Origin: Candidatus Daviesbacteria bacterium
GTDB taxonomy: Bacteria > Patescibacteriota > Microgenomatia > Daviesbacterales > UBA10151
Length of the DNA: 64,000 bases
Assembly (NCBI GenBank): GCA_041690695.1
Contig: JBEPVZ010000002.1
Location: 1,454 to 65,453 of the forward strand
Direction of reading: 5' to 3'
Below are positions 322-64,000 of the stretch, in pieces (the first letter of the stretch is position 1; each line of letters starts with the position of its first letter). The notes below the pieces were generated by a model. It saw nothing but the letters and a program-made list of their open reading frames with translations, made no database searches and was not told where the DNA came from. The translations under genes were made by a program, and so were the position numbers.

Positions 322-1473
322 ATGGGAAAGATGCTTTCTAAAATATCTATTTCTTTGATATTTTCATGTTGTCTTATAATATTCTTTAGTTATTGGATTG
401 GGACTAATTTACATTTAAAATCGCCTACCCCAATAAGTTTTACAATAGCTGATTTATTTGGTAAACACCTTGAAACACCCTTTATCTTGATGATACTAGC
501 TAGTTTGGGGAGTGTTTTCTTACTTTTTTTCGTAGTTCAAAAACTGTTTGATTCAACTCTGGCAAATTTATCGATATTAATCTTTGGACTTAATCCGTGG
601 ACATCTTATGAAAGTGCAAGTAATTCAGTTTATGTCTTATTTACATTTGAGATATTAGCTGTTTTGGGAGCCTTGCTTTTACCGATTAAGAATGTATATC
701 TAAAGAGCCTAATTATCGGGGCGATTAGTTTTATAGCAATAATTTCGAGTTTATGGATGTGGCTAATTATTCCATCTCTAGTTTATTCGGGTTATAGATT
801 GGGTTGGATTAGCTCTAAAGAATTTAAATTCGTTAGCAGCTTGATTGGGCTAGCTCTAATTATTATGTTTATTTTAGGCGTTAAACACGAAAGTTATTTT
901 CTGCGAGTCATTAATCAAAATATTAATCTTTTTCAAAACGCCAAGGTCTTAAATAATATCAATCTATTTCATGATCAATTTAGAATTGGTGGTTATAGAG
1001 TGGGAGAAATTATTGAAAATAAATATTTCTACGATACTCAACATCTCTTTTTTCATTTTGCTGAATATTTCTCCCCAGTCATTTATTTTACCAGCCAAGC
1101 TAAAATAGATGACTTTTCGTTTAGTCCGCCAATTTATCTGGCACTGATCTTCCCCTTTTTTTATGGGTTAGATCTTTTTTTTACTAAATTTAAAATTAAG
1201 TATAAAAAACTACTTTGTATAAATATTATTTTATTGCTGTTACCTGCAACCCTCTCTAATATTCAACCTGATCTAGGTAGATTGTTTCTCATTTTTCCTA
1301 TAATAACTTTTCTAATATCTTTAGGTTTAAGAGGTTTTTATAAGCTATATCATCAATCTCGATCAGCTAAATTTTTGTTAATTTTATTAGCGAGTTTGTT
1401 CTTATTTCAAGTCATTGTGACGATGTCAGATATTGCCAATAGGGAACCAATTAGAATAAAAAACAATGCTTAA
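322..1473 (+). CDS. integral membrane protein; truncated or degenerate paralog of the PMT/ArnT-like GT-C family, lacking the DE loop
   Basis: GLNPWTSY and AEYFSPVIYFTSQ segments align with ISPW... and ...P.FLF.SG... blocks of the 1466, 9013, 10677 and 12245 paralogs. There is no S-L-N-x-D-E motif (ADLFGKH instead) and no C-terminal WQYGYK domain. Confidence 0.5.
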   Translation: MGKMLSKISISLIFSCCLIIFFSYWIGTNLHLKSPTPISFTIADLFGKHLETPFILMILASLGSVFLLFFVVQKLFDSTLANLSILIFGLNPWTSYESASNSVYVLFTFEILAVLGALLLPIKNVYLKSLIIGAISFIAIISSLWMWLIIPSLVYSGYRLGWISSKEFKFVSSLIGLALIIMFILGVKHESYFLRVINQNINLFQNAKVLNNINLFHDQFRIGGYRVGEIIENKYFYDTQHLFFHFAEYFSPVIYFTSQAKIDDFSFSPPIYLALIFPFFYGLDLFFTKFKIKYKKLLCINIILLLLPATLSNIQPDLGRLFLIFPIITFLISLGLRGFYKLYHQSRSAKFLLILLASLFLFQVIVTMSDIANREPIRIKNNA

Positions 1474-3136
1474 ACCATCGAAAAATTTAGTTTTTATAAC
1501 TATATTCATTTTAATTTTTATGTTAGGGACCTTTCTTCGTTTTGTGAACTTTACTAACAACCCAGTCAGCTTGAATATTGACGAGGTGGCTATTGGATAT
1601 AATGCTTACTCGATTTTAAAAACTGGTCGAGATGAATACGGCCTCTTTTTGCCGCTATCATTTAAGTCGGTTGGGGATTATAAACCGCCAGTCTTAATTT
1701 ATTTAACTGTTCCATCAATTGCGATTTTTGGTTTGAATGAATTTGGAGTTAGATTTCCGGTCGCTCTCTTGTCTAGCCTAACAATCTTGTTTGGGTACTT
1801 TCTCTTTAAACGATTAACTGACAATAAAACAATTGCTCTACTCGCGATGTGTCTACTTGCGATTTCACCATGGGGAATTTATTACGCTCGTTATGCTGAT
1901 GAAGCAACGGTAGCATTATTTCTAGTGGTAGTTGGAGCTATTTGTTTTTTTAAAATGATTGATAAGCATAGCTTGTCTTGGCAGGTTCTTTCGGCGGTTT
2001 TTTTAGGAATCTCAATGTATTGTTACTATACCGAACGACTTTTTGTACCAATACTTTTAGGAATACTATTATTTAGTTATATAAAGCAAAGAAAGCTAAC
2101 TTTTAAGGGTTGTTTAATCTTTCTAGTTACTTTGGGATTACTAATTAGTCCGCTTATTCTCTCAACTATTTTTGGTCCTGATAAAACACGGGTAGCTACG
2201 ACATTTATTACCAATGATCCGGAACTACAGCGCCAAGTTTTAACCTCACAAAACCAGATCTTGCCCAATTCATTATTTAGCTTTTTTGATAATAATCTTT
2301 TCCTCTCTATTTTTTATGGCATCCGAAAATATTTGTATTATTTTCATCCAGCCTTTCTTTTTTATAACGGACTAAATATGACAATTGATAATAGCTATGG
2401 GTTAGGAGTTGTCTACTTATTTGAACTGCCATTTCTGCTAATGGGCGGATATATTCTTATTAGAAAAAAGATTAAATCCAAGTTAATTATTTTGAGCTGG
2501 TTATTACTAGGAATTTTACCAGCGGCATTAACTCAAAATGAACAACACTCACTTCGTACGCTAGTGGCATTACCGATCTTTAATTTAATCTCGGCCTTAG
2601 GTGGATACGATCTATTTGGGCGGATTAGAAAAATGAAAGTTAATTACCAGCTGGCGATTGGTTCAGGTTTTACGCTGGTCGTTTTTATTCTTTTAGTCCA
2701 TGCTTATTTTGTTTTTAGTGTTTACTTTAAATATCAAAGGGGAGAAGCCTTTATGGAAGGGACTAAACAAGCCGTTAAATATGCGCTCGATCATAAAGCT
2801 GAGTATAATGAGATTGTTTTTGATCCGGTTAGAGGCGTAGATGGTCCAGATATTGTAAGTATTCCCCATATGTATGTTTTGTTTTACTCTCAATATGATC
2901 CCTCAATTTATCAAACTGAAATGAAAAGATATGGTACAAATAACCAAGATTTGTACGGCTTTGATAAATTTACAATTCGTCATATTGATTGGCCGACTGA
3001 TCACTCCAAAACAAAAACCTTATTTATTGGTAGCCCCTGGTCAATACCCTTGCAAGATATTCCTCAAGATCAAATTCTTCAAAAAATTTATCTGACTAAT
3101 GGCAAACTTGCTTTAATAATTGCCAAATCAGATTAA
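1466..3136 (+). CDS. GT-C fold glycosyltransferase, PMT/ArnT-like (GT39/GT83-type), polyprenyl-phosphate-sugar dependent
   Basis: N-terminal TM, then the SLNIDEVAIGYNAYSILKTGRDEYG loop (DE catalytic motif) and FKSVGDYKPP. Multiple TMs. C-terminal soluble domain ending in the ...PHMYVLFYSQYDP block. Overlaps the upstream gene by 8 bp. Confidence 0.7.
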   Translation: MLKPSKNLVFITIFILIFMLGTFLRFVNFTNNPVSLNIDEVAIGYNAYSILKTGRDEYGLFLPLSFKSVGDYKPPVLIYLTVPSIAIFGLNEFGVRFPVALLSSLTILFGYFLFKRLTDNKTIALLAMCLLAISPWGIYYARYADEATVALFLVVVGAICFFKMIDKHSLSWQVLSAVFLGISMYCYYTERLFVPILLGILLFSYIKQRKLTFKGCLIFLVTLGLLISPLILSTIFGPDKTRVATTFITNDPELQRQVLTSQNQILPNSLFSFFDNNLFLSIFYGIRKYLYYFHPAFLFYNGLNMTIDNSYGLGVVYLFELPFLLMGGYILIRKKIKSKLIILSWLLLGILPAALTQNEQHSLRTLVALPIFNLISALGGYDLFGRIRKMKVNYQLAIGSGFTLVVFILLVHAYFVFSVYFKYQRGEAFMEGTKQAVKYALDHKAEYNEIVFDPVRGVDGPDIVSIPHMYVLFYSQYDPSIYQTEMKRYGTNNQDLYGFDKFTIRHIDWPTDHSKTKTLFIGSPWSIPLQDIPQDQILQKIYLTNGKLALIIAKSD

Positions 3137-3215: not shown

Positions 3216-4553
3216 ATGATAATAAAGTTACTTAAAAATAATAAAAAATTACTGATATTAATTGTCCTATTTGTGGCGCTAGTCTTTAGACTTGCCATAA
3301 TAAGTTATGCGACTCATCCTGATATCTTTTCGTTCGCGAGTTGGGGGAAATGGATTTATGATTATGGTACAAAAGGTTTTTATGAGAATAATGTTTGGGT
3401 TTATGAATGGCCGAATCTGCCACCACTATTAAATTTAATTTTTGTGGGTATGAGATGGTTTTATTTGTTTAGTTTGAAAACTGTTCATCTATTTGATTAT
3501 TATCTTATACCATCATTTATTAGCTATAACTTGCCAGGGTGGAAAGACTGGGTGAGCTGGTACGGCGAAACTAATTATTATCCATATACCTTTCTTCCAA
3601 ATGGCTATATTATCTGCCTAAAACTAGTTGGGGTTATTTCTGATCTACTAATTGGCTGGCTTGCCTTTAAGGTGGCCATTAAACACCTTAGTTATAAAAG
3701 CAGTTTAATATTAGCCAGTCTTTTTGTATTACTCCCTTTTAGCTGGTATTTAAGTACCTTATGGGGACAATATGAATCACTTGTCGCCTTATTCTTAATT
3801 GGAGGGATTCTTTTATTAATCAAGAGATCCTTTTTATTATCCGTACTCTTTATAGCAATTAGTATAAGTATTAAACCAACCAGTGGAGTCTATTTACCTG
3901 TTTATCTGGTCTATTTCTTTAGCCTTCGGCCTAAAATATCAACCTTTTTAATCTCAATCTTTTTAGTCATCATTTTGATAATTACTACGGTGGCACCGTT
4001 TGCAAATAAGGACTTATTTACCTACCTTTATAATGATATTTATCCAAAAGTTTTTTCAGAGTATAGATTTAGAATTACAGATCATGCTTTTAATTTTTGG
4101 AGTATTTTTTATCCATCTGGGGTTTGGTTATCTTCAAAGAATATATTGTTTTTACCGGCTTCAACGTGGAGTCTTTTCGTATTTGTTGGATTAATAATTT
4201 GGTCAAGTTTAATAGTTATTAAGGGGAATATTAAAAATGTACTTAAAGGCTTTTATTTAATGGGCGGTGGAAGTTACCTCTTTATGACTGGTATGCATGA
4301 TCGATACTTTTTCAGTGCGGTGGCTCTTTTAGGTTTTTTAACTATTTTTTATTCAAAATTACTTAAATATTGGATTTTGACAACTTTGTTGTTCTTTTTT
4401 AACTTACTTTATTCATGGGGCTACCCGATTTTTACTCCTGGTCAGGTTTGGGATAATAGTCTTGTCATCCAAATTTCAAGTATTGGTCAAGTGGTCTTAT
4501 TTATTATCTGTTTGTATGAGTTAGGTTTATTGTATAAAATAAGAAGAGGATAA
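3216..4553 (+). CDS. polytopic membrane protein, probable GT-C-type glycosyltransferase (family unclear)
   Basis: 445 aa with about 10 predicted TM segments. The first loop is aromatic-rich (EWPNLPPLLN, WKDWVSWYG). The operon context is GT-only. Confidence 0.45.
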   Translation: MIIKLLKNNKKLLILIVLFVALVFRLAIISYATHPDIFSFASWGKWIYDYGTKGFYENNVWVYEWPNLPPLLNLIFVGMRWFYLFSLKTVHLFDYYLIPSFISYNLPGWKDWVSWYGETNYYPYTFLPNGYIICLKLVGVISDLLIGWLAFKVAIKHLSYKSSLILASLFVLLPFSWYLSTLWGQYESLVALFLIGGILLLIKRSFLLSVLFIAISISIKPTSGVYLPVYLVYFFSLRPKISTFLISIFLVIILIITTVAPFANKDLFTYLYNDIYPKVFSEYRFRITDHAFNFWSIFYPSGVWLSSKNILFLPASTWSLFVFVGLIIWSSLIVIKGNIKNVLKGFYLMGGGSYLFMTGMHDRYFFSAVALLGFLTIFYSKLLKYWILTTLLFFFNLLYSWGYPIFTPGQVWDNSLVIQISSIGQVVLFIICLYELGLLYKIRRG

Positions 4554-4557
4554 AATT

Positions 4558-5463
4558 ATGGCACAAAACAAGATCACAGTCGTTATTAATACTTTAAACG
4601 AACAAAAAAATATTGCCCGAGCGATCGAATCGGTTAAGTGGGCGGATGAGATTTTAGTCTGCGACATGCAATCAGATGATGATACGGCTTTAATTGCCAG
4701 GAAGATGGGCGCAGTCGTTATTTTCCATAAGAGGATGGGTTTTGTTGAGCCAGCGCGGAATTTTGCTATTTCCAAAGCTTCACATGAATGGGTTTTAATT
4801 GTTGATGCTGATGAAGAGATCCCGGACTCTTTAGCAAAATACCTACAAGAGATGGTCCAAAAGCCAATTGTCTCGACCTTTGTTGAAATACCTCGCCAAA
4901 ATATTATTTTCAATAAATGGATGAAAGCTTCGATGTGGTGGCCAGATTATAATATTCGATTTTTCAAAAAAGAGGCTGTGACATGGAGTGACCATATTCA
5001 CCGCCCACCTAAAACAGAGGGTCAAGGTCTGACTTTACCCGGAGAAGAACGCTGGGCGATAATTCATCATAACTATACTAGTGTTAGCCAATTTATTGAT
5101 CGTTTGAACCGATATTCGACGATTCAAGCCAAAGAGCTTAAACAATCAGGCACAGAATTTAAATGGACGGATCTATTAACTAAACCGATTGAGGAGTTTT
5201 TAGGGCGTTTCTTTGCTAATCGAGGTTTTGACGATGGCTTGCACGGTTTAATTCTGAGTTTATTACAAGCTTTTTCATTTTTGGTTGTTTATATAAAATT
5301 ATGGGAATTAAACGGTTTTAAGGAAGATCAGATTAAATTGAGTGAAGTCAGAATTGAAACGGATAAGATTGGTCAACAGATTAACTATTGGTTTAACTTT
5401 CAGTCTTTGTCGAAAAATCCGCTTCGTCGAGTTATTCAGAAGGCTCGAGCTAAACTAAAATGA
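4558..5463 (+). CDS. GT2 family glycosyltransferase (paralog group A)
   Basis: ITVVINTLNEQKNI...VKWADEILVCD...DTALIA...LIVDADEEI carries the GT2 DxD signature. Paralogous to 6306, 13866 and 46375. Confidence 0.7.
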   Translation: MAQNKITVVINTLNEQKNIARAIESVKWADEILVCDMQSDDDTALIARKMGAVVIFHKRMGFVEPARNFAISKASHEWVLIVDADEEIPDSLAKYLQEMVQKPIVSTFVEIPRQNIIFNKWMKASMWWPDYNIRFFKKEAVTWSDHIHRPPKTEGQGLTLPGEERWAIIHHNYTSVSQFIDRLNRYSTIQAKELKQSGTEFKWTDLLTKPIEEFLGRFFANRGFDDGLHGLILSLLQAFSFLVVYIKLWELNGFKEDQIKLSEVRIETDKIGQQINYWFNFQSLSKNPLRRVIQKARAKLK

Positions 5464-6305
5464 TTAAAGTTGGAGTAGTTATTCTTAACTACAAAGTTAA
5501 GAATTTAGCTCTTAAATGTCTTAATTCTGTTCTGGCTTCATCGTTTAAACCCACACATGTTGTAATGGTTGATAACAGCTCAGGTGATGATATAGAAAAG
5601 GAACTTCCAAAATCTGAGAGGGTAGAATTTATTCAAACAGGTCAAAATCTCGGATATACGGGTGGAAATAATGTTGGGATTAAGCACTTGCTTAAGTATG
5701 ATCTTGACTATATCTGGATTCTTAATCCAGACTTAACTGTCGATAAGAAGGCTTTGGAAATTTTAACAAACAAGTCCGAGCAATTAGGGGCTGGAATTAG
5801 TTGTCCTAAGATCTACTTTGAAGGCTCGAAAAAATTATGGTATGCCGGCGGAATATTCGATAAAGCAAATGTTTTAGGAAGCCATCGAGGGGTTGATGAG
5901 CAAGATACTGGTAAATATGATACTGATCAAGAAACTGATTATGCGACCGGCGCCGCCATGTTTATCTCAAGACAGGTTTTAGAAAAAGTTGGCTTATTTG
6001 AAGAGCGTTATTTTTTATATTATGAAGATAGTGATCTGTCGCTTCGGGCAAAACAAGCCGATTTTAAGGTTATGTATATACCGGAGGCCGTTGTTTTTCA
6101 TAAAAATGCCCAGTCAACTAAGCTTGGTTCACCAATTCAAGATTACTATATTACTAGAAACCGAATGCTACTGGCTTCTAAGTTCTTGCCATTTCGGACC
6201 AGATTTGCTTTACTGCGAGAAGGAGTTCGTAATATTCAACAGCCCATTCGTCGCAAAGCCTTACTAGATTTTTTGCTGGGTAGATTTGGTCAAGGAAAAA
6301 TATAA
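5460..6305 (+). CDS. GT2 family glycosyltransferase (paralog group B, rhamnosyl/WbbL-like)
   Basis: VGVVILNYK...VVMVDNSSGDD...NLGYTGGNNVG...YYEDSDLSLRA. ATGA overlap with the upstream gene. Confidence 0.7.
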   Translation: MIKVGVVILNYKVKNLALKCLNSVLASSFKPTHVVMVDNSSGDDIEKELPKSERVEFIQTGQNLGYTGGNNVGIKHLLKYDLDYIWILNPDLTVDKKALEILTNKSEQLGAGISCPKIYFEGSKKLWYAGGIFDKANVLGSHRGVDEQDTGKYDTDQETDYATGAAMFISRQVLEKVGLFEERYFLYYEDSDLSLRAKQADFKVMYIPEAVVFHKNAQSTKLGSPIQDYYITRNRMLLASKFLPFRTRFALLREGVRNIQQPIRRKALLDFLLGRFGQGKI

Positions 6306-7112
6306 ATGATTAGCGTAATTATTATTACTAAAAATGAGCAAGATCAGATTAAAACTTGTTTAGAATCAGTAAAATGGGCCGATGAGATTATTGTCTATGA
6401 TAACGGTTCAACGGATCAGACTTTAAAAATTGCTAAAGAATATACAGATAAGATTTTTACTTTTGAAGGTCAAGACTATGCTGAACTTCGCAACCGGGCT
6501 TTTAAAAAAGCCACCGGAGACTGGGTTTTATACGTTGATGCCGATGAAAGAGTCTTGACTGATCTGAAAGATGAGTTAATCCAGATCTCAAAGTCTTCCG
6601 ATAAATCGGCTTTTGCAATTTCTAGGCGCAATATTATTTTCGGGTCTGAACAAAAATATGGTCCTTTTTGGCCAGATTGGATGATTCGTTTTTTTAAAGC
6701 TCAAGAATTTAAAACTTGGGTGGGCAAGATTCATGAATATGGAACCTTTAATGGTCAACTGGGTTACACCAAGAATTCATTTTTGCATTTAACTCACCGC
6801 AATTTAGATCAGATCGTTTTGAAAAGTCTCCATTGGTCAAATTTTGATGCTAAATTAAGGCTTGACTCGAAACATCCCAAAATGACGGGCTGGCGATTTT
6901 TAAGAATCTTTATAACCGAGACCTGGAATCAAGGAATTAAAAGACGCGGTTTTTTTAATGGCAGTATTGGAATAATGGATTGTCTTTTACAAACCTTTAG
7001 TCTTTATATGAGCTACATCCGACTTTGGGAGCTTCAGCAGCCTAAATCTTTAGATCAAGTTTATAAAGATATTGATTTGGAGCTTTTAAAAGATCAATTT
7101 CAATATAAATGA
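6306..7112 (+). CDS. GT2 family glycosyltransferase (paralog group A)
   Basis: ISVIIITKNEQDQIKTCLESVKWADEIIVYDNGSTDQT...YVDADERV. Close paralog of 4558..5463. Confidence 0.7.
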   Translation: MISVIIITKNEQDQIKTCLESVKWADEIIVYDNGSTDQTLKIAKEYTDKIFTFEGQDYAELRNRAFKKATGDWVLYVDADERVLTDLKDELIQISKSSDKSAFAISRRNIIFGSEQKYGPFWPDWMIRFFKAQEFKTWVGKIHEYGTFNGQLGYTKNSFLHLTHRNLDQIVLKSLHWSNFDAKLRLDSKHPKMTGWRFLRIFITETWNQGIKRRGFFNGSIGIMDCLLQTFSLYMSYIRLWELQQPKSLDQVYKDIDLELLKDQFQYK

Positions 7113-13861: not shown

Positions 13862-13865
13862 TTTT

Positions 13866-18097: not shown

Positions 18098-18100
18098 TCT

Positions 18101-18129
18101 TTGACTTGATGATGAGGCGTTTGTATACT
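18101..18129 (+). promoter_or_regulatory. candidate sigma70-type promoter (TTGACT-17 bp-TATACT) for the 18138.. gene
   Basis: TTGACT at 18101..18106, a 17-nt spacer, and TATACT at 18124..18129. Only 8 nt separate the -10 from the ATG at 18138. Confidence 0.35.
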
Positions 18130-18137
18130 CTTATTTA

Positions 18138-20944: not shown

Positions 20945-20953
20945 TAAAAAATC

Positions 20954-23763: not shown

Positions 23764-23810
23764 AAATGCATTATATAATAAGCTCGATCATTTGCTATGA
23801 TACATACTTA

Positions 23811-28039: not shown

Positions 28040-28113
28040 TTTGGGGTTAAGTATATGAATTCTCTTACACAGTTGCAATCTGCTATTTATTACCGATAAA
28101 ATAACTCAAGTTT

Positions 28114-36950: not shown

Positions 36951-36964
36951 GTGACTTCAAGGCT

Positions 36965-47196: not shown

Positions 47197-47199
47197 AAT

Positions 47200-49440: not shown

Positions 49441-49447
49441 TGTTTAA

Positions 49448-54867: not shown

Positions 54868-54904
54868 ACACTTCCAGGTCCAACAATTTGTTACAATAAA
54901 AAGT

Positions 54905-55918: not shown

Positions 55919-57449
55919 TAGATTTTTAATCATTGGTTTACTGGGGTTGGGAATTATTCTTCGATTAGTTTTAACTTCAAATGGTAATTTTTTGTTTAAT
56001 CTTGATAGTGCTCGAGATATGGTTGATGTTCGGGAGATGGTCGAACTTCATAAATTCAGATTAACCGGTCCAACATCGGGTATTGATGGAGTTTATGATG
56101 GGCCAGCTTGGTATTACCTTATGGCAATTCCATATATTTTATCGGCGGGTGATCCTTATTCGATGATTTTGATGGAAATTATCTTTTGGGCGATTGGTGG
56201 CTGGTTTTTATTAAAAATTGTTAGCCGCTATGGCCGAAATATGATAGTTTTAGTGGGTATTCTTTGGATATTTTCAGATTTAACGTTTTTAGCAACTCGT
56301 TATTCTTTAAGCCCAAATTTAGTTTTATTATTATTTCCTGTCCTTTTTTATGTTTTAGAAAAATCACTAAATCTAAAAACTAAAAAAGTTTATCTTTACA
56401 CAATTTTAGTTTGGGGATTAGCAGGTTTTATTTTTAATTTAGAGATGGCTTTTGGATTAGTTGTGCCAATCTTACTTTTGTTTATTTATTGGCTATATGA
56501 CCATAAATTTTATTTAAGATTAGCTAATTATTTCGGAGTTGTAGTTTATGGCTTATTTCTCCTTCCTCAAATAATTTTTGATTTAAAACATCAAAACATG
56601 ATGGGCCAAGCATTAGTTAATTATTTACATCAACCAGGTGGTGGGTCCGCCAGATCTAATCTAATTAATTTATGGAGAGAAACAGTTTCGGGCATCTTGC
56701 TTAATAATCACTTTTTAATTGACTTAAGTTGGGTTTTAGTCGTTTTAACAGTCGTCATAATTATCAAGAAGTTAAAATTGTCGGATAAATATTTGATAAT
56801 CAGTTTAGTCTTTTTTCTTGGTCCGTTATTAATTTATTTTCTAATTCCGATCAACATTATGCTTTGGCATTTACTTAGCTTAAGTGTTGGTTTTTTAATT
56901 TTAATGGCTGGGGGACTAGGACAGCTTAAAAAAGGACAAATTGGTCGATTGCTAGGGGGATTGTTGATAGTTATTTCTGGTTACTTTGGAATAGTGGGCT
57001 TTTTAGATAACTTAAATCAGCTTAGTAATGACGTCTCACTGTTTAAAAATGAATCAGCAGCTATCGATTATGTTTATGCGTCGGCGAATCATCAAAACTT
57101 TAAAGCCTATGTTTATATGCCCTCGGTGATTGATTATCCTTATCAATATTTATTCTGGTGGCAAGGTATTAAAAAATATGGTTATACACCATCAGATTAT
57201 GCTTATTTACCCAATAAACCAGCGTATATTTCGTCTCAACAATCTTTTATAAAACTTAGTTCAGGTGGAGCGAGTGATCGGGTCTATCTCATTAAAGAGC
57301 CAGATCGAATTTATATGCGACAAGCTTGGGAGAATAGTTTTAATGATTTGCCAGTCGTTGAGACGGTAATGGTCGGACCGCTTGAAGTTGAAATTAGGCA
57401 GGACTTGAGTCAGATGAACGCATCTGCTACGCTTGAGATGAATTTATGA
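55896..57449 (+). CDS. polytopic membrane protein, probable GT-C-type glycosyltransferase
   Basis: 517 aa. The first loop is NLDSARDMVDVREM...GPTSGIDGVYDGPAWYY. About 11 TMs and a C-terminal soluble tail. Confidence 0.45.
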   Translation: MSRFMNLDRFLIIGLLGLGIILRLVLTSNGNFLFNLDSARDMVDVREMVELHKFRLTGPTSGIDGVYDGPAWYYLMAIPYILSAGDPYSMILMEIIFWAIGGWFLLKIVSRYGRNMIVLVGILWIFSDLTFLATRYSLSPNLVLLLFPVLFYVLEKSLNLKTKKVYLYTILVWGLAGFIFNLEMAFGLVVPILLLFIYWLYDHKFYLRLANYFGVVVYGLFLLPQIIFDLKHQNMMGQALVNYLHQPGGGSARSNLINLWRETVSGILLNNHFLIDLSWVLVVLTVVIIIKKLKLSDKYLIISLVFFLGPLLIYFLIPINIMLWHLLSLSVGFLILMAGGLGQLKKGQIGRLLGGLLIVISGYFGIVGFLDNLNQLSNDVSLFKNESAAIDYVYASANHQNFKAYVYMPSVIDYPYQYLFWWQGIKKYGYTPSDYAYLPNKPAYISSQQSFIKLSSGGASDRVYLIKEPDRIYMRQAWENSFNDLPVVETVMVGPLEVEIRQDLSQMNASATLEMNL

Positions 57450-58561
57450 AAATTTGGATTGATGGATATGAAGCGAATTCACCAGATCGACTTGGTTCTT
57501 CTCAAGTTGGTTTTGAACTACTGAAAAGCCTTGCCAAGATTGATAAAAAAAACGATTTTACAATTCTTTTGCCATCAGAACCTTTAGCTGATTTACCAAA
57601 GTCTCGAGCTGGCTGGGCATATCAAGTAATTAATCCAAAACGACTTTGGACGAGATTATCTTTACCAAAATTTATTAACCAATCAAAAGATAAGCCAGAT
57701 GTAGTTTTTTCACCAACCCATTATATTCCCCATACTGGAAAAGTCAGACGAGTTAATATGATCTTTGATCTATCCTTTTTGAAATTTAAAGATATGTTTA
57801 AAAAACGTGATCTCTGGCAGTTAACAATTGGTACAAAATATGGAGCTAAGAACTCCAGTCAAATTATTACGATCTCAGAATCTTCGAAAAAAGATATTAT
57901 GGAGGCGTATAAGGTTGACGGCTCAAAAGTGATGGTTAGTTATCCAGGTTATGACAAAGAGATGTTTTATCCTCGTAATGACCGGAAGCAAGTTGTCAAA
58001 ATTTTAGATAAATATAAGATAGTAGGCGATTATGTTATTTATATCGGGACGATTCAACCTCGTAAGAATTTAGAGCGATTAATTGAAGCTTTTAAAGAGA
58101 TCGAAAACTTAAAGCTGGTTATTGTTGGAAAAACTACGGGTCAGGGTCGACAGGGCTGGATGTTTGAGCAAATTTTAAATAAGCCCAAAGATCTTGGGAT
58201 ATCCGACAAGATTATTTTTACTGGCTTTGCTCCAACTGAAGATTTACCCTATCTTTTAACAGGCGCTAAAGCTTATATTCTGCCGTCCCTTTGGGAGGGT
58301 TTTGGAATACCAGTTGTTGAGGCGATGGCTTGCGGAACGCCGGTAATTGTATCCAGAGTGTCTTCACTGCCTGAAGTTGTTGGTGAGGCTGGATTACAAA
58401 TTGATCCCTACTCAATTTTGGATATTAAAAATGCCATTTTGAAAATAGTCAAAGATCGTGAGCTCGCTCAAACTTTATCTAAAAAAGGCTTAGTTCAAGC
58501 CCGCCAATTTTCGTGGGATAAAATGGCCGAACAAGTTTTAAGCGTTTTAGAAAAATCATGA
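57446..58561 (+). CDS. GT4 family glycosyltransferase
   Basis: [31 protein letters not shown] is the E-x7-E motif. Confidence 0.7.
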
Positions 58562-59433
58562 AGATATCAATTGTCATCCCAAATTGGAATGGAGCGGACA
58601 GGTTAACCAAAAATTTACCTCAAGTTTTAAAGACCGATGACGTTAATGAAGTTATAGTAGTTGATGATTATTCAACTGATAATTCACTTGAAGTTTTAAA
58701 ACGGGATTTCCCGGAAGTTAAAGTTATTAAAAAAGATAAAAATAGTGGCTTTTCCACAGCCGTTAATTTGGGAGTTAAAAATGCTAATGGCGATTTAGTT
58801 TTTATTTTAAATAGTGATGCGGTTCCGGAAAAAGATTGTTTGAAGTTTGTGATTCCAAATTTTAAAGATCCGAAGGTTTTTAGCGTTGGTTGCAACGTTG
58901 GGGGAACATGGGCCTGGATTAAATTTAAAAATGGCTATTTTTGGCATTATCAGGGCGAAAAATCTGAGAGTACGCATCAAACTTTATGGTCTTCCGGTGG
59001 AAGTGGAGTCTTTAGAAAAGATTTATGGGAAGAATTGGGTGGTTTAGACGAATTATTTAATCCGTTTTATGAAGAAGATACCGATTTAGGGTATCGGGCA
59101 ACTAAACGGGGTTATCTTAATCTTTGGGAGCCAAAAGCCAAAGTTGAGCACTATAAAACTCCTGGGGTAATCTCGACTAACTTTTCCAAAAAAACGATCT
59201 CAAATACTGCTCAGAGAAATCAGCTCTATTTCACCTGGAAAAATCTCCATGACCGAAAATTAATGAAAGAACATATTCGATATCTGATAAATATGTTATT
59301 TACTCATCCAAAATATTGGTTGGTTTTCTTAGCAGCGTTTAAAAACCTGTCGGTCGTTTTAAGAAAAAGAAAGATTGAAAAGGTTAATTTAAAGGTTTCT
59401 GATCGGGAGATTTTAAATAAGGTTTGGGGATAA
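58558..59433 (+). CDS. GT2 family glycosyltransferase (group B)
   Basis: ISIVIPNWNGADRL...VIVVDDYSTDNS...NSGFSTAVNLG...FYEEDTDLGYR. Confidence 0.6.
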   Translation: MKISIVIPNWNGADRLTKNLPQVLKTDDVNEVIVVDDYSTDNSLEVLKRDFPEVKVIKKDKNSGFSTAVNLGVKNANGDLVFILNSDAVPEKDCLKFVIPNFKDPKVFSVGCNVGGTWAWIKFKNGYFWHYQGEKSESTHQTLWSSGGSGVFRKDLWEELGGLDELFNPFYEEDTDLGYRATKRGYLNLWEPKAKVEHYKTPGVISTNFSKKTISNTAQRNQLYFTWKNLHDRKLMKEHIRYLINMLFTHPKYWLVFLAAFKNLSVVLRKRKIEKVNLKVSDREILNKVWG

Positions 59434-59524
59434 TCAGAGGGTAATTAGCCTGACTCTGGTGCGGCTAGAATCAATTATCAGAGGGATTTCTGATATGAGG
59501 CTAGTATTTCAAGAGATTTAACTT

Positions 59525-59860
59525 CTATAAGATTGTAATTAATTTGCATACATTTCGTAGAATAATCTTCCTTTTACTTGATGTTAATTCTCCAGCCTTA
59601 CCACTAAGTATGGACATATCTGCTGTAAACAGCTTATCTGGTCTCACAAAGCTTTTTAAGGGAAGACCTCCTTTTGCAAAATCGGATTGTTCTATACTTA
59701 TCGCTGTTTTACTTGAATAAGATTTTGAGGTGATTTGGCATAAAATCAAATTATCAAATTCAACTTGAGCTAATACTAATGCTGGACGAATTTTCTTCCC
59801 TTTCAGATTAGAAAATGGAAAAGAAACTAAAACAATACTACCTACTGTAAACTTTTCCAT
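59525..59860 (-). CDS. mazF: MazF/PemK-family type II toxin (mRNA interferase)
   Basis: 111 aa. GSIVLVSFPFSN..GKKIRPALVL is the PemK/MazF N-terminal signature. It overlaps the upstream antitoxin gene by 19 bp. Confidence 0.7.
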   Translation of the reverse strand: MEKFTVGSIVLVSFPFSNLKGKKIRPALVLAQVEFDNLILCQITSKSYSSKTAISIEQSDFAKGGLPLKSFVRPDKLFTADMSILSGKAGELTSSKRKIILRNVCKLITIL

Positions 59861-60081
59861 GCCTCGTCCTCTTCTGGCCTATTCCAGTCAGTTCCCAGAG
59901 ATTTCTCGGATAATAGTGAGGTGTTATTTACCATATTCTTTGTTATTTTTGCTTGAATAATTCTGATCTCGCCTTTTTTAACTTCCAATTCAACTTCATT
60001 GTCTAGTCCACTTTCATCAAGCAATAGCTTTGGAATACGAATCCCTCGAGAATTTCCTATAGAAATAATTGTCGTAATCAT
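59842..60081 (-). CDS. mazE: MazE-type antitoxin (SpoVT/AbrB swapped-hairpin domain)
   Basis: IGNSRGIRIPKLLLDESGL..VELEVKKGEIRI is the AbrB/MazE fold motif. The C-terminus DWNRPEEDEAW parallels the acidic Trp-containing tail of E. coli MazE. The start is taken at ATG 60081 (MITTIISIGNS); the track ORF extends to 60120. Confidence 0.65.
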   Translation of the reverse strand: MITTIISIGNSRGIRIPKLLLDESGLDNEVELEVKKGEIRIIQAKITKNMVNNTSLLSEKSLGTDWNRPEEDEAWKSLQ

Positions 60082-60151
60082 ATGTAATAACATTGTAGAT
60101 ACATATAAAGATGATGTCAATATTTAATTTTGGATTAGAAAATTTAAATAT

Positions 60152-60163
60152 CTCAGATCTGAG
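60152..60163 (-). promoter_or_regulatory. perfect 12-bp palindrome CTCAGATCTGAG upstream of mazE (candidate TA operator overlapping the promoter)
   Basis: Lies about 70 bp upstream of the antitoxin start. On the minus strand it is preceded by TTGTCC-17 nt-TATGCT, a -35/-10-like arrangement whose -10 overlaps the palindrome. Confidence 0.4.
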
Positions 60164-60251
60164 CATATGGTTCGCAGTCCGTGCGGACAATATTTGATAT
60201 TAAACGATAGAATAGATTATTAACTCATTTTAAATAGTTAGAAAACTAGTC

Positions 60252-60911
60252 TTGACAAGGAGTCTTTTAAAACTGAAATTTAGTGACTTAGTTGCTATAA
60301 TAATCCTAATGAGCGTCTTTAAGGATCGAAATGGTCGGAGTTTAACGCTAGCTACGGCTTTTCGAAAAATTGGCCGGAGATTTTTTAGCTATATTGAGGA
60401 TATTGAACTTCTACTTATTAACACCTTAAGTTGGGTGCCTTCGCATTTTTTTAGACTAGCTCTGTATGCTGGCTGCGGAGTGACGGTTGGACGCAAGAGC
60501 AGAATTCATATTGGTGCTCGATTTTTTGAGCCAAAAGGCGTCAAGATTGGTTGGGGGACGATTGTTGGAGAATTGGCCTTTTTAGATGGTCGGGGAGGTT
60601 TAAAAATTGGTAATCATGTCGATATCGCCTCTCAAGTTATGATTTATACTTCAGAACATAATATTCATTCCGAAAGTTTTGAACCAATCTGTCAGCGAGT
60701 TGAGATTGGTGATTATGTTTTTATTGGTCCTAGAGTGATTATTTTACCAGGAGTTAAGATTGGAAATGGTGCGGTGGTTGGTGCTGGGGCAGTTGTCACT
60801 AAAGATGTTTCGGAACTCGCGATTGTCGGAGGTGTTCCAGCTCAAGTTATTGGTACTCGTAAAGTTTCTAGTCTTCACTACCGTTTAGGTCGAGCTCGAT
60901 TATTTCAATGA
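60252..60911 (+). CDS. hexapeptide-repeat (LbH) sugar O-acetyltransferase-like protein
   Basis: LbH repeats IHIGARFFEPKGVKIGWGTIVGELAFLDGRGGLKIGNHVDIASQVMIY...IGPRVIILPGVKIGNGAVVGAGAVVTKDV. The track ORF starts at a TTG; the ATG at 60309 (MSVFKDRNG) is an alternative start. Confidence 0.6.
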   Translation: MTRSLLKLKFSDLVAIIILMSVFKDRNGRSLTLATAFRKIGRRFFSYIEDIELLLINTLSWVPSHFFRLALYAGCGVTVGRKSRIHIGARFFEPKGVKIGWGTIVGELAFLDGRGGLKIGNHVDIASQVMIYTSEHNIHSESFEPICQRVEIGDYVFIGPRVIILPGVKIGNGAVVGAGAVVTKDVSELAIVGGVPAQVIGTRKVSSLHYRLGRARLFQ

Positions 60912-61477
60912 TTAAAAAATTTCTAATTGTTATTGTCAGCTTAATTTTTGTTTTAGGAATAGTTTATTTAGTTTTGCCATATCCGTCGTCAATTAATAGT
61001 TTTCCAGGTTTACCTTATTCAACTAAATCGGATCTAGATGGTGATACCTGGCAACATCCCAATATTAGTGCCTATTTTTCTCAGTTAACTCGAGATGAGG
61101 TAACCGCTTTTTATCGCCAGCAACTTCAAAGTCAATTTTGGGTTGGCAAAATAATTTCTCCTTTAACTCAAAATCGACCACCCGAAGAGGCTTATCAATA
61201 TATTCGTGATCAGCAGCAAAGTACATTTCTTGAGGAATATGTCTATCCTTTTAAAGGAGCCTTATTTGTTAATGGCTACGAACCGATTGTCGAAAATGGC
61301 GGGTCAATAGATTTCGTTTCTGACCATATCGAATTTAAAAATCAATATTATATTTCTAAAACCACTCTCCGGTTTTATCCGACTTCTCGAAAGTATTCAA
61401 TTGCCATTTATTTAGGAATTTGGTTAGCCTTGTTTGGTTTATATAAGATGGGTCGAATAATACTCAAGTTGAAATGA
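60908..61477 (+). CDS. hypothetical bitopic membrane protein
   Basis: 189 aa with N- and C-terminal hydrophobic helices and no recognisable motif. 4-bp overlaps on both sides. Confidence 0.4.
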   Translation: MIKKFLIVIVSLIFVLGIVYLVLPYPSSINSFPGLPYSTKSDLDGDTWQHPNISAYFSQLTRDEVTAFYRQQLQSQFWVGKIISPLTQNRPPEEAYQYIRDQQQSTFLEEYVYPFKGALFVNGYEPIVENGGSIDFVSDHIEFKNQYYISKTTLRFYPTSRKYSIAIYLGIWLALFGLYKMGRIILKLK

Positions 61478-62367
61478 AAGTTGCAATTATCATTGTTGAG
61501 TTTAATACCCGAGATATTTTAAAGAACTGTTTAGAATCGATCTATAAATATAAGTGGCAAAACCAGTTTGAAGTTTTAGTAGTCGATAACGCTTCAACTG
61601 ATGATTCAGTCGAAATGGTCAAAAAAAACTTCCCAAAAGTCAAAGTTATTTCAAGTTCAAAAAATTTAGGTTTTGGAGGAGGTAATAATCTTGGATTAAA
61701 GTCTTCAGATGGCGATTATTATTTACTTCTTAATTCGGATACTATTGTTTTAGATAACTCGCTTGATAATTTAGTTGAGTTTGCTAAAACTCACGACTAT
61801 GGTCTTTCGTCTTGTAAACTACTAAATGCTGATAAAACCTTGCAGCCTAACGTCGGTGATTTACCAATTGGACTGGCTTTATTTAACTGGTTATCCGGTT
61901 TAGATGATTTATTGTCTAAATTTGGTTTTAATCTGTCTTCTTTTCATCAAAGATCATCTGCCTTTTATAAAAAGTCCCGCCAAGTTGGTTGGGTCCAGGG
62001 GGCTGCCATGTTAATTAGAAAAGATGTTTTCGAAAAAATTGGCGGGTTGGACGAGGGTATCTTTATGTATGCTGAAGACGTCGAGTACTGTATGAGAGCT
62101 CAAAAAGCTAAATTTAAAATCGGATTTACAAATAAAGCTGAGATTATTCATTTAGGTGGTGCGAGTTCTTCGGACCCTAGTCTAAAACAGTGGTCTGGCG
62201 AATTTATCGGTTTAATCTATATCTACAAAAAATATTTTAGTAGCTTGGCACAACTAATTTTAAAAGTCTTATTGTATATCTTTATTATTATGAGGATAAT
62301 TATCTTCTTAGCCTTAGGCAAATTTAAAATTGCCTCAACCTATGCAAAAATTATATCAACTTTATAA
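61474..62367 (+). CDS. GT2 family glycosyltransferase (group B)
   Basis: VAIIIVEFNTRDIL...VLVVDNASTDDS...NLGFGGGNNLG...MYAEDVEYCMRA. Confidence 0.65.
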   Translation: MKVAIIIVEFNTRDILKNCLESIYKYKWQNQFEVLVVDNASTDDSVEMVKKNFPKVKVISSSKNLGFGGGNNLGLKSSDGDYYLLLNSDTIVLDNSLDNLVEFAKTHDYGLSSCKLLNADKTLQPNVGDLPIGLALFNWLSGLDDLLSKFGFNLSSFHQRSSAFYKKSRQVGWVQGAAMLIRKDVFEKIGGLDEGIFMYAEDVEYCMRAQKAKFKIGFTNKAEIIHLGGASSSDPSLKQWSGEFIGLIYIYKKYFSSLAQLILKVLLYIFIIMRIIIFLALGKFKIASTYAKIISTL

Positions 62368-63778
62368 TAAATACTTTTTTTGGGTGATAGTTGCCTTAAT
62401 GGCTTTTATCCCTCTTTATCCCAAATTGCCATTATTAAATGTCTCAGGGACTTTCGTGGCGATTAGATTAGAAGACTTTTTAATTGCGGCGACATTAATT
62501 ATTTGGGCGATCTTCTCGGTACCGAAGATTAAAACTTATCTTCATCAGCCGATTCTTCAGGCAATGATCTTATTTTGGTTAATTGGGGGTTTAGGAGTTT
62601 TGTCGGGGGTTTTTATTACCAATAGTGTTAACTTTCATTTAGGTTTTTTTAACTGGTTAAGACGGATCGAGTTTATGTCCTTATTTTTAGTCGGAGCCAC
62701 GGTTTTTCGGACACTTAAACAGATCAGAATATTGGTTGGAACGATTGTTCTAACAACAATTTTAGTTAGTCTGTATGGTTTTGGACAGGTCTGGTTACAT
62801 TTCCCTGTCATTTCAACCAGTAACAACGAATATTCCAAAGGCTTAATCTTAACTTTGACTCCGGGGACTCGGGTTAATTCAACGTTTGCTGGTCAATATG
62901 ATTTAGCGATTTATTTAAATATCGCTTTGGCTATTTTAAGTAGTTTATTTTTTTATTATAAAAAGCTTTTTCAAAAAATTGTTGTTTTAGTCGCTTCCGG
63001 GTTGGGATTTGTGTTGTTAACAATGACGACCGCCCGAATGTCTTTTGCCGCAACCATGACTAGTGTGGCCCTAGCCTTTTGGCTAACCGGTAAAAAGCTC
63101 TTAATTGGCTTATTAATTTTAGGCGGGATAGCGGCCTTAATTATCAGTCCAGATTTAAGGCATCGGATTGTGGCAACAGTAACGGTTAATCTGTTAAACG
63201 GTGGTGGCCCGAAATATAATCCGCCTGCGGGAACTGTTAATATCTTTACCCCAATTCAAAAGATTCCACCGGCTGAGCGCAATCAATACTTAGCTCAAGC
63301 TTTAAAAGAATCGACTTTATCAGCTAGTCAATCATCAAAGATTCCACGAGATATTAGTGCCGGTGAACCGATTAATTCAACTGAGCTTGGGGTTTATCGC
63401 TCACTCGGTATTCGAACGAATGTTGAATGGCCGAGAGCCATTCGGGCTTTTAAAGAAAATCCATTGTTGGGTACTGGATACTCATCAATTACCTTAGCTA
63501 CTGATAATGATATTTTAAGATCTTTAGGTGAAACTGGATTACTTGGAACACTCAGTCTAATCTTTGTGTTTGCGATTTTAATTAAAGGGATGTGGAGGTT
63601 TATAAGACTTGGTCGTGGGCTTAAAAAACTGTTTACAATTGGAGTCTTTACTGGATTTATTGGTTTACTTATGACCAGTACTTTTATTGATGTTTTTGAA
63701 GCTTCAAAAATTGCTGAAGTATTTTGGTTAATATTAGGTGTAAACTGGGCTTTAATAACTCAAGCTGAAGATGATTAA
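62330..63778 (+). CDS. O-antigen ligase/polymerase-family membrane protein (Wzy_C-like)
   Basis: About 11 TMs. The periplasmic-loop block LLTMTTARMSF resembles the Wzy_C (T/S)QSRG motif with its conserved Arg. The downstream DNDILRSLGETGLLG resembles the HN..L..L.E.G..G block, with Asp in the His position. Start uncertain (62330 or 62342). Confidence 0.5.
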   Translation: MPQPMQKLYQLYNKYFFWVIVALMAFIPLYPKLPLLNVSGTFVAIRLEDFLIAATLIIWAIFSVPKIKTYLHQPILQAMILFWLIGGLGVLSGVFITNSVNFHLGFFNWLRRIEFMSLFLVGATVFRTLKQIRILVGTIVLTTILVSLYGFGQVWLHFPVISTSNNEYSKGLILTLTPGTRVNSTFAGQYDLAIYLNIALAILSSLFFYYKKLFQKIVVLVASGLGFVLLTMTTARMSFAATMTSVALAFWLTGKKLLIGLLILGGIAALIISPDLRHRIVATVTVNLLNGGGPKYNPPAGTVNIFTPIQKIPPAERNQYLAQALKESTLSASQSSKIPRDISAGEPINSTELGVYRSLGIRTNVEWPRAIRAFKENPLLGTGYSSITLATDNDILRSLGETGLLGTLSLIFVFAILIKGMWRFIRLGRGLKKLFTIGVFTGFIGLLMTSTFIDVFEASKIAEVFWLILGVNWALITQAEDD

Positions 63779-64000
63779 AAAGATACTTTTAGTTTTAATT
63801 ATTGTGCTGGCTTTCGTTGTCAGACAATACAAGATTGATAATGCCATTGCTGATTGGCATTCTTGGCGCCAAGCCGATACTGCGGCCGTAGCACGAAACT
63901 TTTATAAAGAAGGTTTCAATCCATTTCTTCCAAAATATGATGATATGTCGAGAGTTTCTGAGACCTCGCTTCCTAACCCCAATCGTTATCGATTTGTGGA
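63771..64000 (+). CDS. GT-C glycosyltransferase, ArnT-like; N-terminal fragment, gene runs past the window end
   Basis: MIKKILLVLIIVLAFVVRQYKIDNAIADWHSWRQADTAAVARNF. SWRQADTA is a recurrent first-loop motif of ArnT/PMT_2-type enzymes. 8-bp overlap with the upstream gene. Confidence 0.5.
   Translation, partial: MIKKILLVLIIVLAFVVRQYKIDNAIADWHSWRQADTAAVARNFYKEGFNPFLPKYDDMSRVSETSLPNPNRYRFV

Follow-up and report, generated by a model that had tools for sequence, protein, structure and literature searches.

Gene content of the window

The window analysed here (64,000 nt of contig JBEPVZ010000002.1 from a Candidatus Daviesbacteria bacterium) carries an almost continuous run of genes for the assembly of envelope glycans, in which membrane glycosyltransferases of the GT-C type are unusually numerous. 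From position 322 to 64000, the open reading frame (ORF) listing contains 55 complete genes and one that is cut by the window end (63771-64000, first 76 codons), with a coding density of 99.1% and gene junctions that are mostly 4-nt overlaps. All genes but seven lie on the + strand, the seven being five glycan genes and a MazEF pair. The GC content is even, ranging from 31 to 37% across the window (34% overall). In the text, ORFs are named by their start coordinate in the window (o322, o39155), and L0xx numbers designate related loci or contigs.

A Pfam family cut-off was reached by 45 of the 55 complete ORFs. Pfam identified 16 Glycos_transf_2 (GT2) proteins, 7 Glycos_transf_1 (GT4), 9 PMT_2, 2 Polysacc_synt (Wzx), 4 S-adenosylmethionine (SAM) methyltransferases and 2 hexapeptide acyltransferases; two deacetylase-like proteins were added, o22819 with a sub-threshold score and o18917 on its fold. 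An initial annotation of the same sequence had proposed about 55 genes, with 7 GT4, 2 flippases, 4 methyltransferases, 2 acetyltransferases and about 13 GT2 plus three lipid-monosaccharide synthases, the sum of which equals our Glycos_transf_2 count. These figures were thus reproduced, most glycosyltransferase calls being backed by Pfam hidden Markov models, and the GT-C-type proteins came to 17, against roughly 18 there. A simple hydropathy scan counted 19 polytopic proteins in the window.

Paralogues within the window are at most 37-40% identical, which indicates an ancient paralogy and rules out a recent amplification. Repeated DNA was confined to the GT2 motif region, and neither recent duplications nor invertible elements nor tandem arrays were seen in the window. 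No tRNA gene or Rfam family was found in the window, and scans for promoters and terminators, made at the 5' edge and in the surroundings of MazEF, performed no better than on shuffled sequence. An NCBIfam search gave no match for nine unassigned window proteins. Apart from MazE, no regulator was found in the window, so that the earlier statement that regulators are absent holds with this one exception. Finally, three listed starts (28833, 36878 and 62330) lie 109, 73 and 38 nt inside the gene before them. Both the placement of the domains and the alignment with orthologs suggest true starts further downstream, with the usual short overlaps; in the GT2 at 28833-29939, the domain begins at residue 42 and the true start is probably near 28940.

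GT-C membrane glycosyltransferases

Seventeen GT-C proteins (16 complete and one cut) were recognised by Pfam, fold, profile, hhalign or ortholog. Nine of them pass the PMT_2 cut-off, and o15744 (PIG-V) and o42469 (PTPS_related) reach those of their own families. PTPS_related presumably belongs to the GT-C clan of Pfam, and o42469 is 26% identical to o39155 over 330 amino acids. Three proteins were assigned by hhalign alone against the PMT_2 paralogues of the window: the o55896 family scored 98.7%, o37539 96.6% and o322 93.1%, the Wzx and Wzy controls staying at or below 2%. With o3216 as query, an exhaustive search returned 1,109 representatives, and a 50-sequence profile matched, in the PDB, GPI mannosyltransferase 1 (PIG-M) with an E value of 1.8e-9 and ALG6 with an E value of 1.5e-5. 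The cut gene at 63771 was assigned through the relatives: its sequence aligns with the PMT_2 gene found there after the Wzy-like one, and its ortholog in L002 scores 49 bits against PMT_2. By a simple Kyte-Doolittle scan, the candidates contain 6-11 hydrophobic segments and, by inspection, every one of them has an Asp or Glu shortly after the first transmembrane (TM) segment, 25-45 residues from the N-terminus.

The protein o39155 was modelled with AlphaFold from a 31-sequence alignment (pLDDT 83.4), residues ~460-940 being beta-rich. When the model was compared with the PDB by Foldseek, the top matches were three mycobacterial AftD cryo-EM entries (E ~1e-17), the best being 6wby and 6w98 (TMq 0.52-0.54), followed by PglB, DPY19, ALG12, ArnT and AftA. 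Thus, o39155 is predicted to adopt the AftD fold, that is, a GT-C domain with carbohydrate-binding-like ectodomains. Against the Pfam AftD family PF11847, o39155 itself scores 14.8 bits, under the cut-off of 26, and 14 of the 31 family members match at E ≤1e-3. Neither its sequence nor its profile matched a PDB entry, and PDB sequence searches with o42469, with o22819, with o62330 and with two family profiles likewise gave no useful matches. No member of the arabinofuranose donor pathway (UbiA-type transferase, DprE1/DprE2) was found among the window proteins.

Lipid-sugar synthase and deacetylase-like proteins

Residues 14-306 of the GT2 encoded at 27107-28078 align to residues 7-295 of ArnC (E 1.6e-38), and the protein also aligns to GtrB (E 1.6e-35). 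It carries two C-terminal TM segments, at ~248 and ~276. On this alignment it is assigned as a polyprenyl-phosphate glycosyltransferase, the expected donor-maker for the GT-C enzymes, which, judging by the co-encoded synthase, would use polyprenyl-phosphate sugars. Three lipid-monosaccharide synthases had been proposed at first; this one was confirmed and the other two were not, the GT2 at 35207 resembling TarS/TarP. The GT2 at 18138-18920 has a catalytic domain 35% identical to that of the ArnC/GtrB-like protein.

The previously unannotated 675-aa protein o18917 gave an AlphaFold model with a pLDDT of 88.7. In this protein, a signal peptide precedes an ectodomain that forms a DUF3863/CE4-like barrel; two TM helices come next, and then a C-terminal domain in which two cysteines are invariant. 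With the ectodomain, Foldseek retrieved 3lm3 (DUF3863 "glycoside hydrolase/deacetylase", E 6e-14) and then CE4 deacetylases; the profile also matches 3lm3 (E 9e-6). The family is 44-48% identical in Daviesbacteria and Woesebacteria and is always found beside a GT2 and a Wzx gene. Its alignment contains invariant Asp and Glu but lacks a His pair that is invariant, which makes an activity of the glycoside-hydrolase kind just as possible, and o18917 may be a hydrolase instead of a deacetylase. The deacetylase named earlier was o22819: its score of 18.9 bits falls short of the Pfam cut-off of 23.1, while its translation does contain the CE4-like H-S-x-x-H motif (HSFSH).

Flippases, the Wzy_C-family protein and the initiating enzyme

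Wzx-type flippases are represented by two Polysacc_synt proteins, at 63 and 82 bits. The ligase or polymerase announced by the initial annotation is o62330, which itself scores 20.9 bits, below the Wzy_C cut-off; among its orthologs, 25 of 26 match Wzy_C (best E 1.2e-10). The Wzy_C family also takes in ligases and O-oligosaccharyltransferases. Thus o62330, for which no PDB match was obtained, is a candidate polymerase, ligase or O-oligosaccharyltransferase. A scan of JGI metagenomes with an alignment trimmed to the conserved C-terminal part (N-terminal patterns gave no matches) gave more than 463 matches, 42-59% identical to o62330; the 80 loci returned out of these formed the basis of local mapping by tblastn and blastp.

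The gene directly after the Wzy-like one is a PMT_2 in 67 of 67 loci. Where the downstream flank measured 9.9 kb or more, which was the case for 31 loci, all 31 have a Bac_transf gene on the same strand 4.7-9.4 kb (median 5.6 kb) downstream of the Wzy-like gene, with DUF4012 normally next after it. DUF4012 is enriched in the Candidate Phyla Radiation (CPR) and linked to capsule and exopolysaccharide loci (PMC6744442). Two contigs of one species, L002 from a GTDB metagenome-assembled genome and L008 from Logan, match the 3' end of the window gene for gene in the order Hexapep, 189-aa protein, GT2, Wzy-like and PMT_2. Beyond PMT_2, they continue with GT4, GT2, GT4, rsmH (opposite strand), GT4, Bac_transf and DUF4012, and then with RecO, a tRNA synthetase, mraZ, a penicillin-binding protein (PBP), a Mur ligase and murB.

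Pfam found neither Bac_transf nor a WecA-type enzyme among the window proteins. The initiating enzyme is strongly conserved as a family: when that of a relative was used as query, identities of 64% or more were reached by each of the 120 best matches, and the source contig was not represented among these 120. The absence of an initiating enzyme, although correctly noted before, is probably an effect of the window edge, since the window stops ~5-9 kb short of the place where the gene lies in 31 of 31 relatives; to judge from this gene order, the initiating Bac_transf of the source genome most likely lies ~5-9 kb past the window end. A partner gene missing at a window edge should therefore not be taken as a real absence.

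Bac_transf and DUF4012 close the island in the relatives, and mraZ, PBP, Mur ligase and murB lie a few kb further downstream, so that the glycan island and the cell-division and wall cluster are physically linked there. This arrangement is seen in L008 (7967-20618) and in L009, L010, L016, L018, L032, L036 and L061. In a subset of the relatives, rsmH/mraW lies inside the island on the opposite strand.

Conserved modules in related genomes

Comparison of gene order revealed at least three sub-modules, A, B and C, whose collinearity extends to genomes of the Daviesbacteria and Woesebacteria type. The island is therefore typical of the lineage, and the initial view of a single exceptional locus is not borne out. 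Since the modules have differing neighbours in different genomes, they appear as separable units.

Ten genes of module A (9013-22078) are collinear with Daviesbacteria L089, and its core (GT4, PIG-V-like, Wzx, GT2, 675-aa protein, GT4) is also present in the Woesebacteria scaffold L090. The three PMT_2 paralogues at 9013-13861 are 30-37% identical to one another and 63%, 33% and 48% identical to their collinear counterparts in L089; o15744 is kept in L089 and an unannotated 397-aa gene occupies the equivalent place in L090. Directly after module A, both relatives carry genes for a nucleoside diphosphate (NDP)-sugar epimerase, a dehydratase and a UDP-glucose dehydrogenase (L089 13164-16872; L090 13587-17584), and L089 additionally has large genes of the sugar-C-methyltransferase type. 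In the window, module A is followed instead by genes for a methyltransferase, a CE4-like protein, a GT4 and a PMT_2, and the absence of NDP-sugar genes from the window is thus real.

In module B, o37539 and the AftD-like gene are kept as a pair in L005 and L007, where the o37539 ortholog lies directly upstream of the AftD-like gene; the pair formed by the second Wzx and a GT2 is also kept in both. L005 and L007 each have a methyltransferase whose best match in the window is the one at 36207-36950: that of L005 keeps the order (30%), and that of L007 is on the opposite strand (32%). Module C (50260-62367) has collinear orthologs, 40-65% identical, in more than 20 metagenome loci. In the relatives it has no Wzx of its own within 10 kb and may therefore depend on the Wzx of another module.

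Around the AftD-like gene, proteins of 696-896 aa with discoidin (F5_F8_type_C) domains are encoded in L005 (3598-10017) and L007 (1-1670). The discoidin-annotated protein of L005 is the o37539 GT-C ortholog, and the window copy (539 aa) shows no such domain. The small ORF at 42079-42447 overlaps the stop of the AftD-like gene by 4 nt; its product has three TM helices and is not recognisable as GtrA. Genes of 111 aa (L007) and 129 aa (L005) occupy its place.

The named homologs of o39155, o18917 and the downstream initiator come from Daviesbacteria, Woesebacteria, Microgenomates or "Patescibacteria group", and the closest relatives of the variable window proteins are only 43-48% identical. An archaeal origin was considered and rejected on the mraZ, PBP and Mur genes beside the island and on the Daviesbacteria and Woesebacteria names in the relatives. 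Proteins identical to those of the window are encoded on the independently assembled Logan contigs L001, L003 and L004 (run SRR27874556). The long contigs of the relatives measure 0.74-1.15 Mb, which points to a genome of roughly 1 Mb for this uncultured bacterium of the groundwater type, of which the island, at 64 kb or more, would take up ~6-8%.

Proposed pathway and alternative explanations

Taken together, the window probably holds most of a lineage-conserved, multi-module envelope-glycan island and not one exotic pathway. From the observed gene families and counts, the folds of two proteins and the conserved gene order in relatives, we infer the following steps, donor sugars, acceptors and, for the source genome, initiating enzyme. 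On the cytoplasmic face, a small Bac_transf phosphoglycosyltransferase, probably encoded beyond the window, would prime polyprenyl phosphate. The lipid-linked oligosaccharide would then be lengthened by soluble GT4 and GT2 enzymes and modified by methyltransferases and hexapeptide acyltransferases. The two Wzx flippases would export the lipid-linked intermediates, which the Wzy_C-family protein would polymerise or ligate to an acceptor. In parallel, the ArnC/GtrB-type GT2, and possibly other GT2s, would make polyprenyl-phosphate monosaccharides. The 17 GT-C enzymes (PMT_2/ArnT-like, AftD-like, PIG-V-like, PIG-M/ALG6-like and PTPS-related) would use these donors outside the membrane in order to elongate, branch or decorate the glycan, surface proteins or both, and the exported DUF3863/CE4-fold protein may trim or de-acetylate the product. 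As acceptors, a polysaccharide, a wall polymer and surface proteins all come into consideration.

This agrees with the earlier description of an envelope-glycan assembly system, unusually rich in GT-C and equipped with methyl- and acetyltransferases and deacetylase-like proteins. Its large extracytoplasmic share is probably also right, in view of the 17 GT-C proteins, the ArnC/GtrB-type synthase and the exported DUF3863/CE4-like protein. A stronger version, in which a relay of ~17 GT-C enzymes, an AftD-like one among them, builds a major envelope polymer largely at the external face of the membrane in CPR bacteria of the Microgenomates type, as for mycobacterial arabinogalactan and lipoarabinomannan (LAM), is put forward tentatively and looks doubtful at present.

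Several points weigh against this reading. The relatives were read as loci of ~20 kb, so that collinearity applies to each module and not to the contiguity of A, B and C. As stated in the initial annotation, no NDP-sugar enzyme and no Wzz or other chain-length regulator is present among the Pfam matches of the window. The initiating enzyme is placed by analogy with the relatives. Furthermore, there is one clear lipid-sugar synthase for 17 GT-C enzymes, and no window ORF matched a small flippase of the GtrA/GtcA type.

The alternative that survives best, although we judge it unlikely, is that the locus serves mainly protein glycosylation. The PMT_2 enzymes would then be protein O-glycosyl (mannosyl) transferases acting on S-layer, pilin or other surface proteins, the Wzy_C protein an O-oligosaccharyltransferase of the PglL/WsaB type, and the main product would be something other than a free or wall-linked polysaccharide. 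PMT and PMT_2 are indeed protein-mannosyltransferase families in Pfam, and one PMT_2 protein of a relative also matches TMEM260_N. Serotype-specific Wzy polymerases are typically much less conserved than the Wzy_C protein of the window, whose identity of 42-59% across more than 460 relatives fits a fixed acceptor. It is this conservation, together with the PMT family membership, that keeps protein glycosylation alive; CPR cells are also reported to carry pili and surface proteins (PMC6744442, PMC12911398). However, PMT_2 spans ArnT-like lipid and glycan transferases as well, the members that resemble AftD, PIG-V and PIG-M/ALG6 speak for glycan-on-glycan or glycan-on-lipid chemistry, and the window encodes no candidate acceptor protein. 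In addition, the downstream DUF4012 and Bac_transf are typical of capsule and exopolysaccharide loci (PMC6744442).

The initial annotation implied that all ~55 genes make one very complex heteropolysaccharide, which now appears quite improbable. The contiguous and 99% coding arrangement, nearly all on one strand with overlapping junctions, would suit a single product, as would the lack in relatives of a Wzx within 10 kb of module C. Against this stand the two Wzx genes, the conservation of modules A, B and C as separate blocks with differing neighbours in L089, L090, L005 and L007, and the presence of five glycan genes and MazEF on the opposite strand.

It had further been stated that a standard initiating enzyme or NDP-sugar cassette just outside the window would make this a conventional large O-antigen locus. 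In this alternative, an O-antigen or lipopolysaccharide (LPS) locus would have its initiator and its sugar-nucleotide cassette merely out of sight. A Bac_transf is probably just downstream, and Wzx and a Wzy_C-family gene are present, but the conclusion does not follow. Seventeen GT-C genes are far outside the make-up of O-antigen loci and, besides this dominance, there is no Wzz. In L008, the island is followed by peptidoglycan and cell-division genes and not by LPS genes. Since CPR bacteria, Microgenomates among them, are reported to lack a Gram-negative envelope and to have a Gram-positive-like one (PMC6744442), an LPS O-antigen is very improbable, even with an initiator nearby.

Finally, an artefact, either a mis-assembled or chimeric contig or ORFs over-called in AT-rich DNA, is scarcely credible: the source is metagenome-assembled and 34% GC favours long chance ORFs, but 45 of the 55 complete ORFs reach a Pfam cut-off, the GC content is even, identical proteins occur on the independent contigs L001, L003 and L004, and the gene order is repeated in dozens of unrelated metagenomes.

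Comparison with known systems

In mycobacterial and corynebacterial arabinogalactan and LAM synthesis, the GT-C enzymes EmbA/B/C, AftA-D, PimE and MptA-C use decaprenyl-phosphate sugars. As read from its genes, the island shares with this system the many GT-C paralogues, a GT2 lipid-sugar synthase and the AftD architecture of o39155. It differs in belonging to another phylum with a tiny genome, in the absence of UbiA and DprE1/2 from the window, in the presence of Wzx and Wzy_C, and in the Bac_transf that stands in place of WecA in relatives.

With the Wzx/Wzy loci for O-antigen, capsule or exopolysaccharide (EPS) of Gram-positive and Gram-negative bacteria, the island has in common GT2 and GT4 enzymes of the cytoplasm, Wzx flippases, a protein of the Wzy_C family and transferases for acetyl and methyl groups. 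The ending with Bac_transf and DUF4012 in the relatives of the island is also that of the capsular polysaccharide (CPS)/EPS cluster of Bifidobacterium longum (PMC6744442). Unlike such loci, the window has no Wzz (polysaccharide co-polymerase, PCP) or tyrosine-kinase module, contains 17 GT-C genes and is about three to four times the usual size, and its Wzy_C protein is strongly conserved in the clade and not hypervariable. The pairing of an ArnC/GtrB-type GT2 with GT-C proteins follows the same donor logic as the three-component extracytoplasmic systems GtrA/GtrB/GtrC for O-antigen modification, CsbB/GtcA/YfhO for teichoic-acid glycosylation and ArnC/ArnT for lipid A modification, from which the island differs by the lack of a GtrA/GtcA flippase in the window, the many GT-C proteins per clear synthase and a much larger locus.

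Loci for S-layer or protein O-glycosylation include slg of Geobacillus and Paenibacillus (WsaP/WsaB), PglL of Neisseria and the actinobacterial Pmt. The likeness to them lies in the Bac_transf of the relatives, the Wzy_C protein as a potential O-oligosaccharyltransferase and the PMT-family enzymes; the difference, in the absence of an identified acceptor gene in the window and in a GT-C diversity that goes beyond PMT. All the enzyme families are known, and it is the GT-C-rich layout that is unusual. In the literature, we found no description of this GT-C-dominated island or of the modules conserved in it. The statements found there were generic, crediting Patescibacteria with numerous glycosyltransferases (PMC12911398) and with pili and lectins.

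CPR bacteria (Patescibacteria) make up a large share of bacterial diversity, with ~1-Mb genomes that have lost most biosynthetic capacity. That a conserved island of at least 64 kb is kept in a genome of this size suggests that surface glycans rank among the first priorities of these cells, which are probably episymbiotic. If the GT-C relay is true, it would represent a previously unrecognised class of wall or surface polymer in CPR, which may mediate attachment to the host. The GT-C set and the conserved proteins (the 675-aa DUF3863-like protein, the 189-aa protein and, in relatives, DUF4012) can serve as marker genes for finding the island elsewhere, and the gene set could help to direct chemical analysis of glycans in enrichments as well as work on phage receptors or on attachment to the host.

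MazEF insertion and other genes

The earlier description of the gene run as uninterrupted has to be corrected for a MazF/MazE pair on the minus strand (59525-60120). A PemK toxin is accompanied by an adjacent 92-aa ORF (MazE_antitoxin 21.5 bits, under the cut-off of 24.7), and by these sequence features the pair is assigned as a MazEF type II toxin-antitoxin system. It lies between the GT2 at 58558-59433 and the Hexapep gene at 60252-60911, flanked by gaps of 91 and 131 nt, the largest in the window. MazEF is missing here in the relatives, of which L010 carries another insertion, of four genes, at the same site. MazEF is thus an insertion outside the glycan machinery, and the junction looks like an insertion hot spot. 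All features of the window are listed in Table 1.

Table 1. Genes of the window, with coordinates, strand and the basis of assignment (scores in bits refer to Pfam families unless stated otherwise)
Feature	Coordinates	Strand	Basis
o322, 8-TM candidate GT-C	322-1473	+	no Pfam match; hhalign 93.1% vs PMT_2 paralogue alignment
PMT_2/PMT GT-C	1466-3136	+	PMT_2 67.3 bits; "DE" motif after TM1
o3216, PIG-M/ALG6/GT87-like GT-C	3216-4553	+	profile vs PIG-M, ALG6; 4 of 50 homologs match GT87
Three GT2	4558-5463, 5460-6305, 6306-7112	+	Glycos_transf_2 61-81 bits
GT4	7109-8182	+	Glycos_transf_1 67.3 bits
GT2	8179-8958	+	Glycos_transf_2 99.3 bits
Three PMT_2 paralogues, start of module A	9013-10680, 10677-12248, 12245-13861	+	PMT_2 46-60 bits
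GT2, module A	13866-14729	+	Pfam; L089 ortholog 45% identity
GT4, module A	14729-15769	+	Pfam; L089 ortholog 43% identity
o15744, PIG-V-like GT-C, 8 TM, module A	15744-16862	+	Mannosyl_trans2 22.7 bits (cut-off 22.4)
Wzx-type flippase 1, module A	16859-18097	+	Polysacc_synt 63.4 bits
GT2 without TM, module A	18138-18920	+	L089 ortholog 56% identical
o18917, exported membrane-anchored DUF3863/CE4-like protein, module A	18917-20944	+	AlphaFold, Foldseek, profile
GT4, end of module A	20954-22078	+	Glycos_transf_1 130 bits
SAM methyltransferase	22062-22817	-	Methyltransf_11 63.8 bits
o22819, possible CE4-type deacetylase (weak)	22819-23763	-	Polysacc_deac_1 18.9 bits (cut-off 23.1)
GT4	23766-24965	+	Glycos_transf_1 126.8 bits
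PMT_2 GT-C, 714 aa	24962-27106	+	PMT_2 37.7 bits
ArnC/GtrB-type polyprenyl-phosphate glycosyltransferase (predicted)	27107-28078	-	full-length ArnC, GtrB match
Two GT2	28114-28941, 28833-29939	+	Pfam
FAD amine-oxidase-like oxidoreductase (PRK07233 family)	29948-31249	+	NF005560 412 bits; Amino_oxidase 93.6 bits
SAM methyltransferase	31230-31985	+	Pfam
PMT/PMT_2 GT-C, 741 aa	31982-34207	+	Pfam
Two GT2, the second TarS/TarP-like with 2 C-terminal TM	34249-35214, 35207-36196	+	Pfam
SAM methyltransferase, module B	36207-36950	+	Pfam
Hexapeptide acyltransferase	36878-37546	+	Hexapep 40.8 bits
o37539, 8-TM candidate GT-C, 539 aa, module B	37539-39158	+	hhalign 96.6% vs PMT_2 paralogues
o39155, AftD-like GT-C, beta-rich ectodomains, C-terminal TM, module B	39155-42082	+	AlphaFold/Foldseek
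Small 3-TM protein, 122 aa	42079-42447	+	no Pfam match
o42469, PTPS_related large membrane protein	42469-45123	+	PF10131 27.8 bits (cut-off 26.4)
Wzx-type flippase 2	45113-46375	+	Polysacc_synt 82.1 bits; L007 ortholog 48% identical
Two GT2	46375-47196, 47200-47949	+	Pfam
PMT_2 GT-C	47946-49415	-	PMT_2 43.3 bits
SAM methyltransferase	49448-50263	+	Pfam
PMT_2 GT-C, start of module C	50260-51666	+	Pfam; orthologs in L009, L033
GT4, module C	51648-52610	+	Pfam; orthologs 56-63% identity in many loci
GT2, module C	52607-53446	+	Glycos_transf_2 126.6 bits
PMT_2 GT-C, module C	53410-54867	+	Pfam; orthologs in related loci
GT4, module C	54824-55918	+	Pfam; orthologs 56-63% identity
o55896, 9-TM GT-C, module C	55896-57449	+	no Pfam match; hhalign 98.7% vs PMT_2 paralogues
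GT4, module C	57446-58561	+	Glycos_transf_1 136 bits; identical protein on Logan contig L001
GT2, module C	58558-59433	+	Pfam
MazF toxin (59525-59860) and MazE-like antitoxin (59842-60120)	59525-60120	-	PemK_toxin 41.7 bits
Hexapeptide acyltransferase, module C	60252-60911	+	Hexapep 55.7 bits; orthologs 54-65% identity
189-aa protein, N-terminal TM, module C	60908-61477	+	no Pfam/NCBIfam match
GT2, module C	61474-62367	+	Pfam
o62330, Wzy_C-family membrane protein	62330-63778	+	Wzy_C 20.9 bits (cut-off 31.7)
N-terminus of PMT_2 GT-C, cut by window end	63771-64000	+	ortholog alignment

Two further genes deserve mention. In the related loci that were mapped, the 189-aa protein (60908-61477) has an ortholog encoded beside Hexapep, on the upstream side of the Wzy-like gene. 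The FAD amine-oxidase-like gene at 29948-31249, whose PRK07233 family is named "hypothetical protein", sits among GT2 and methyltransferase genes.

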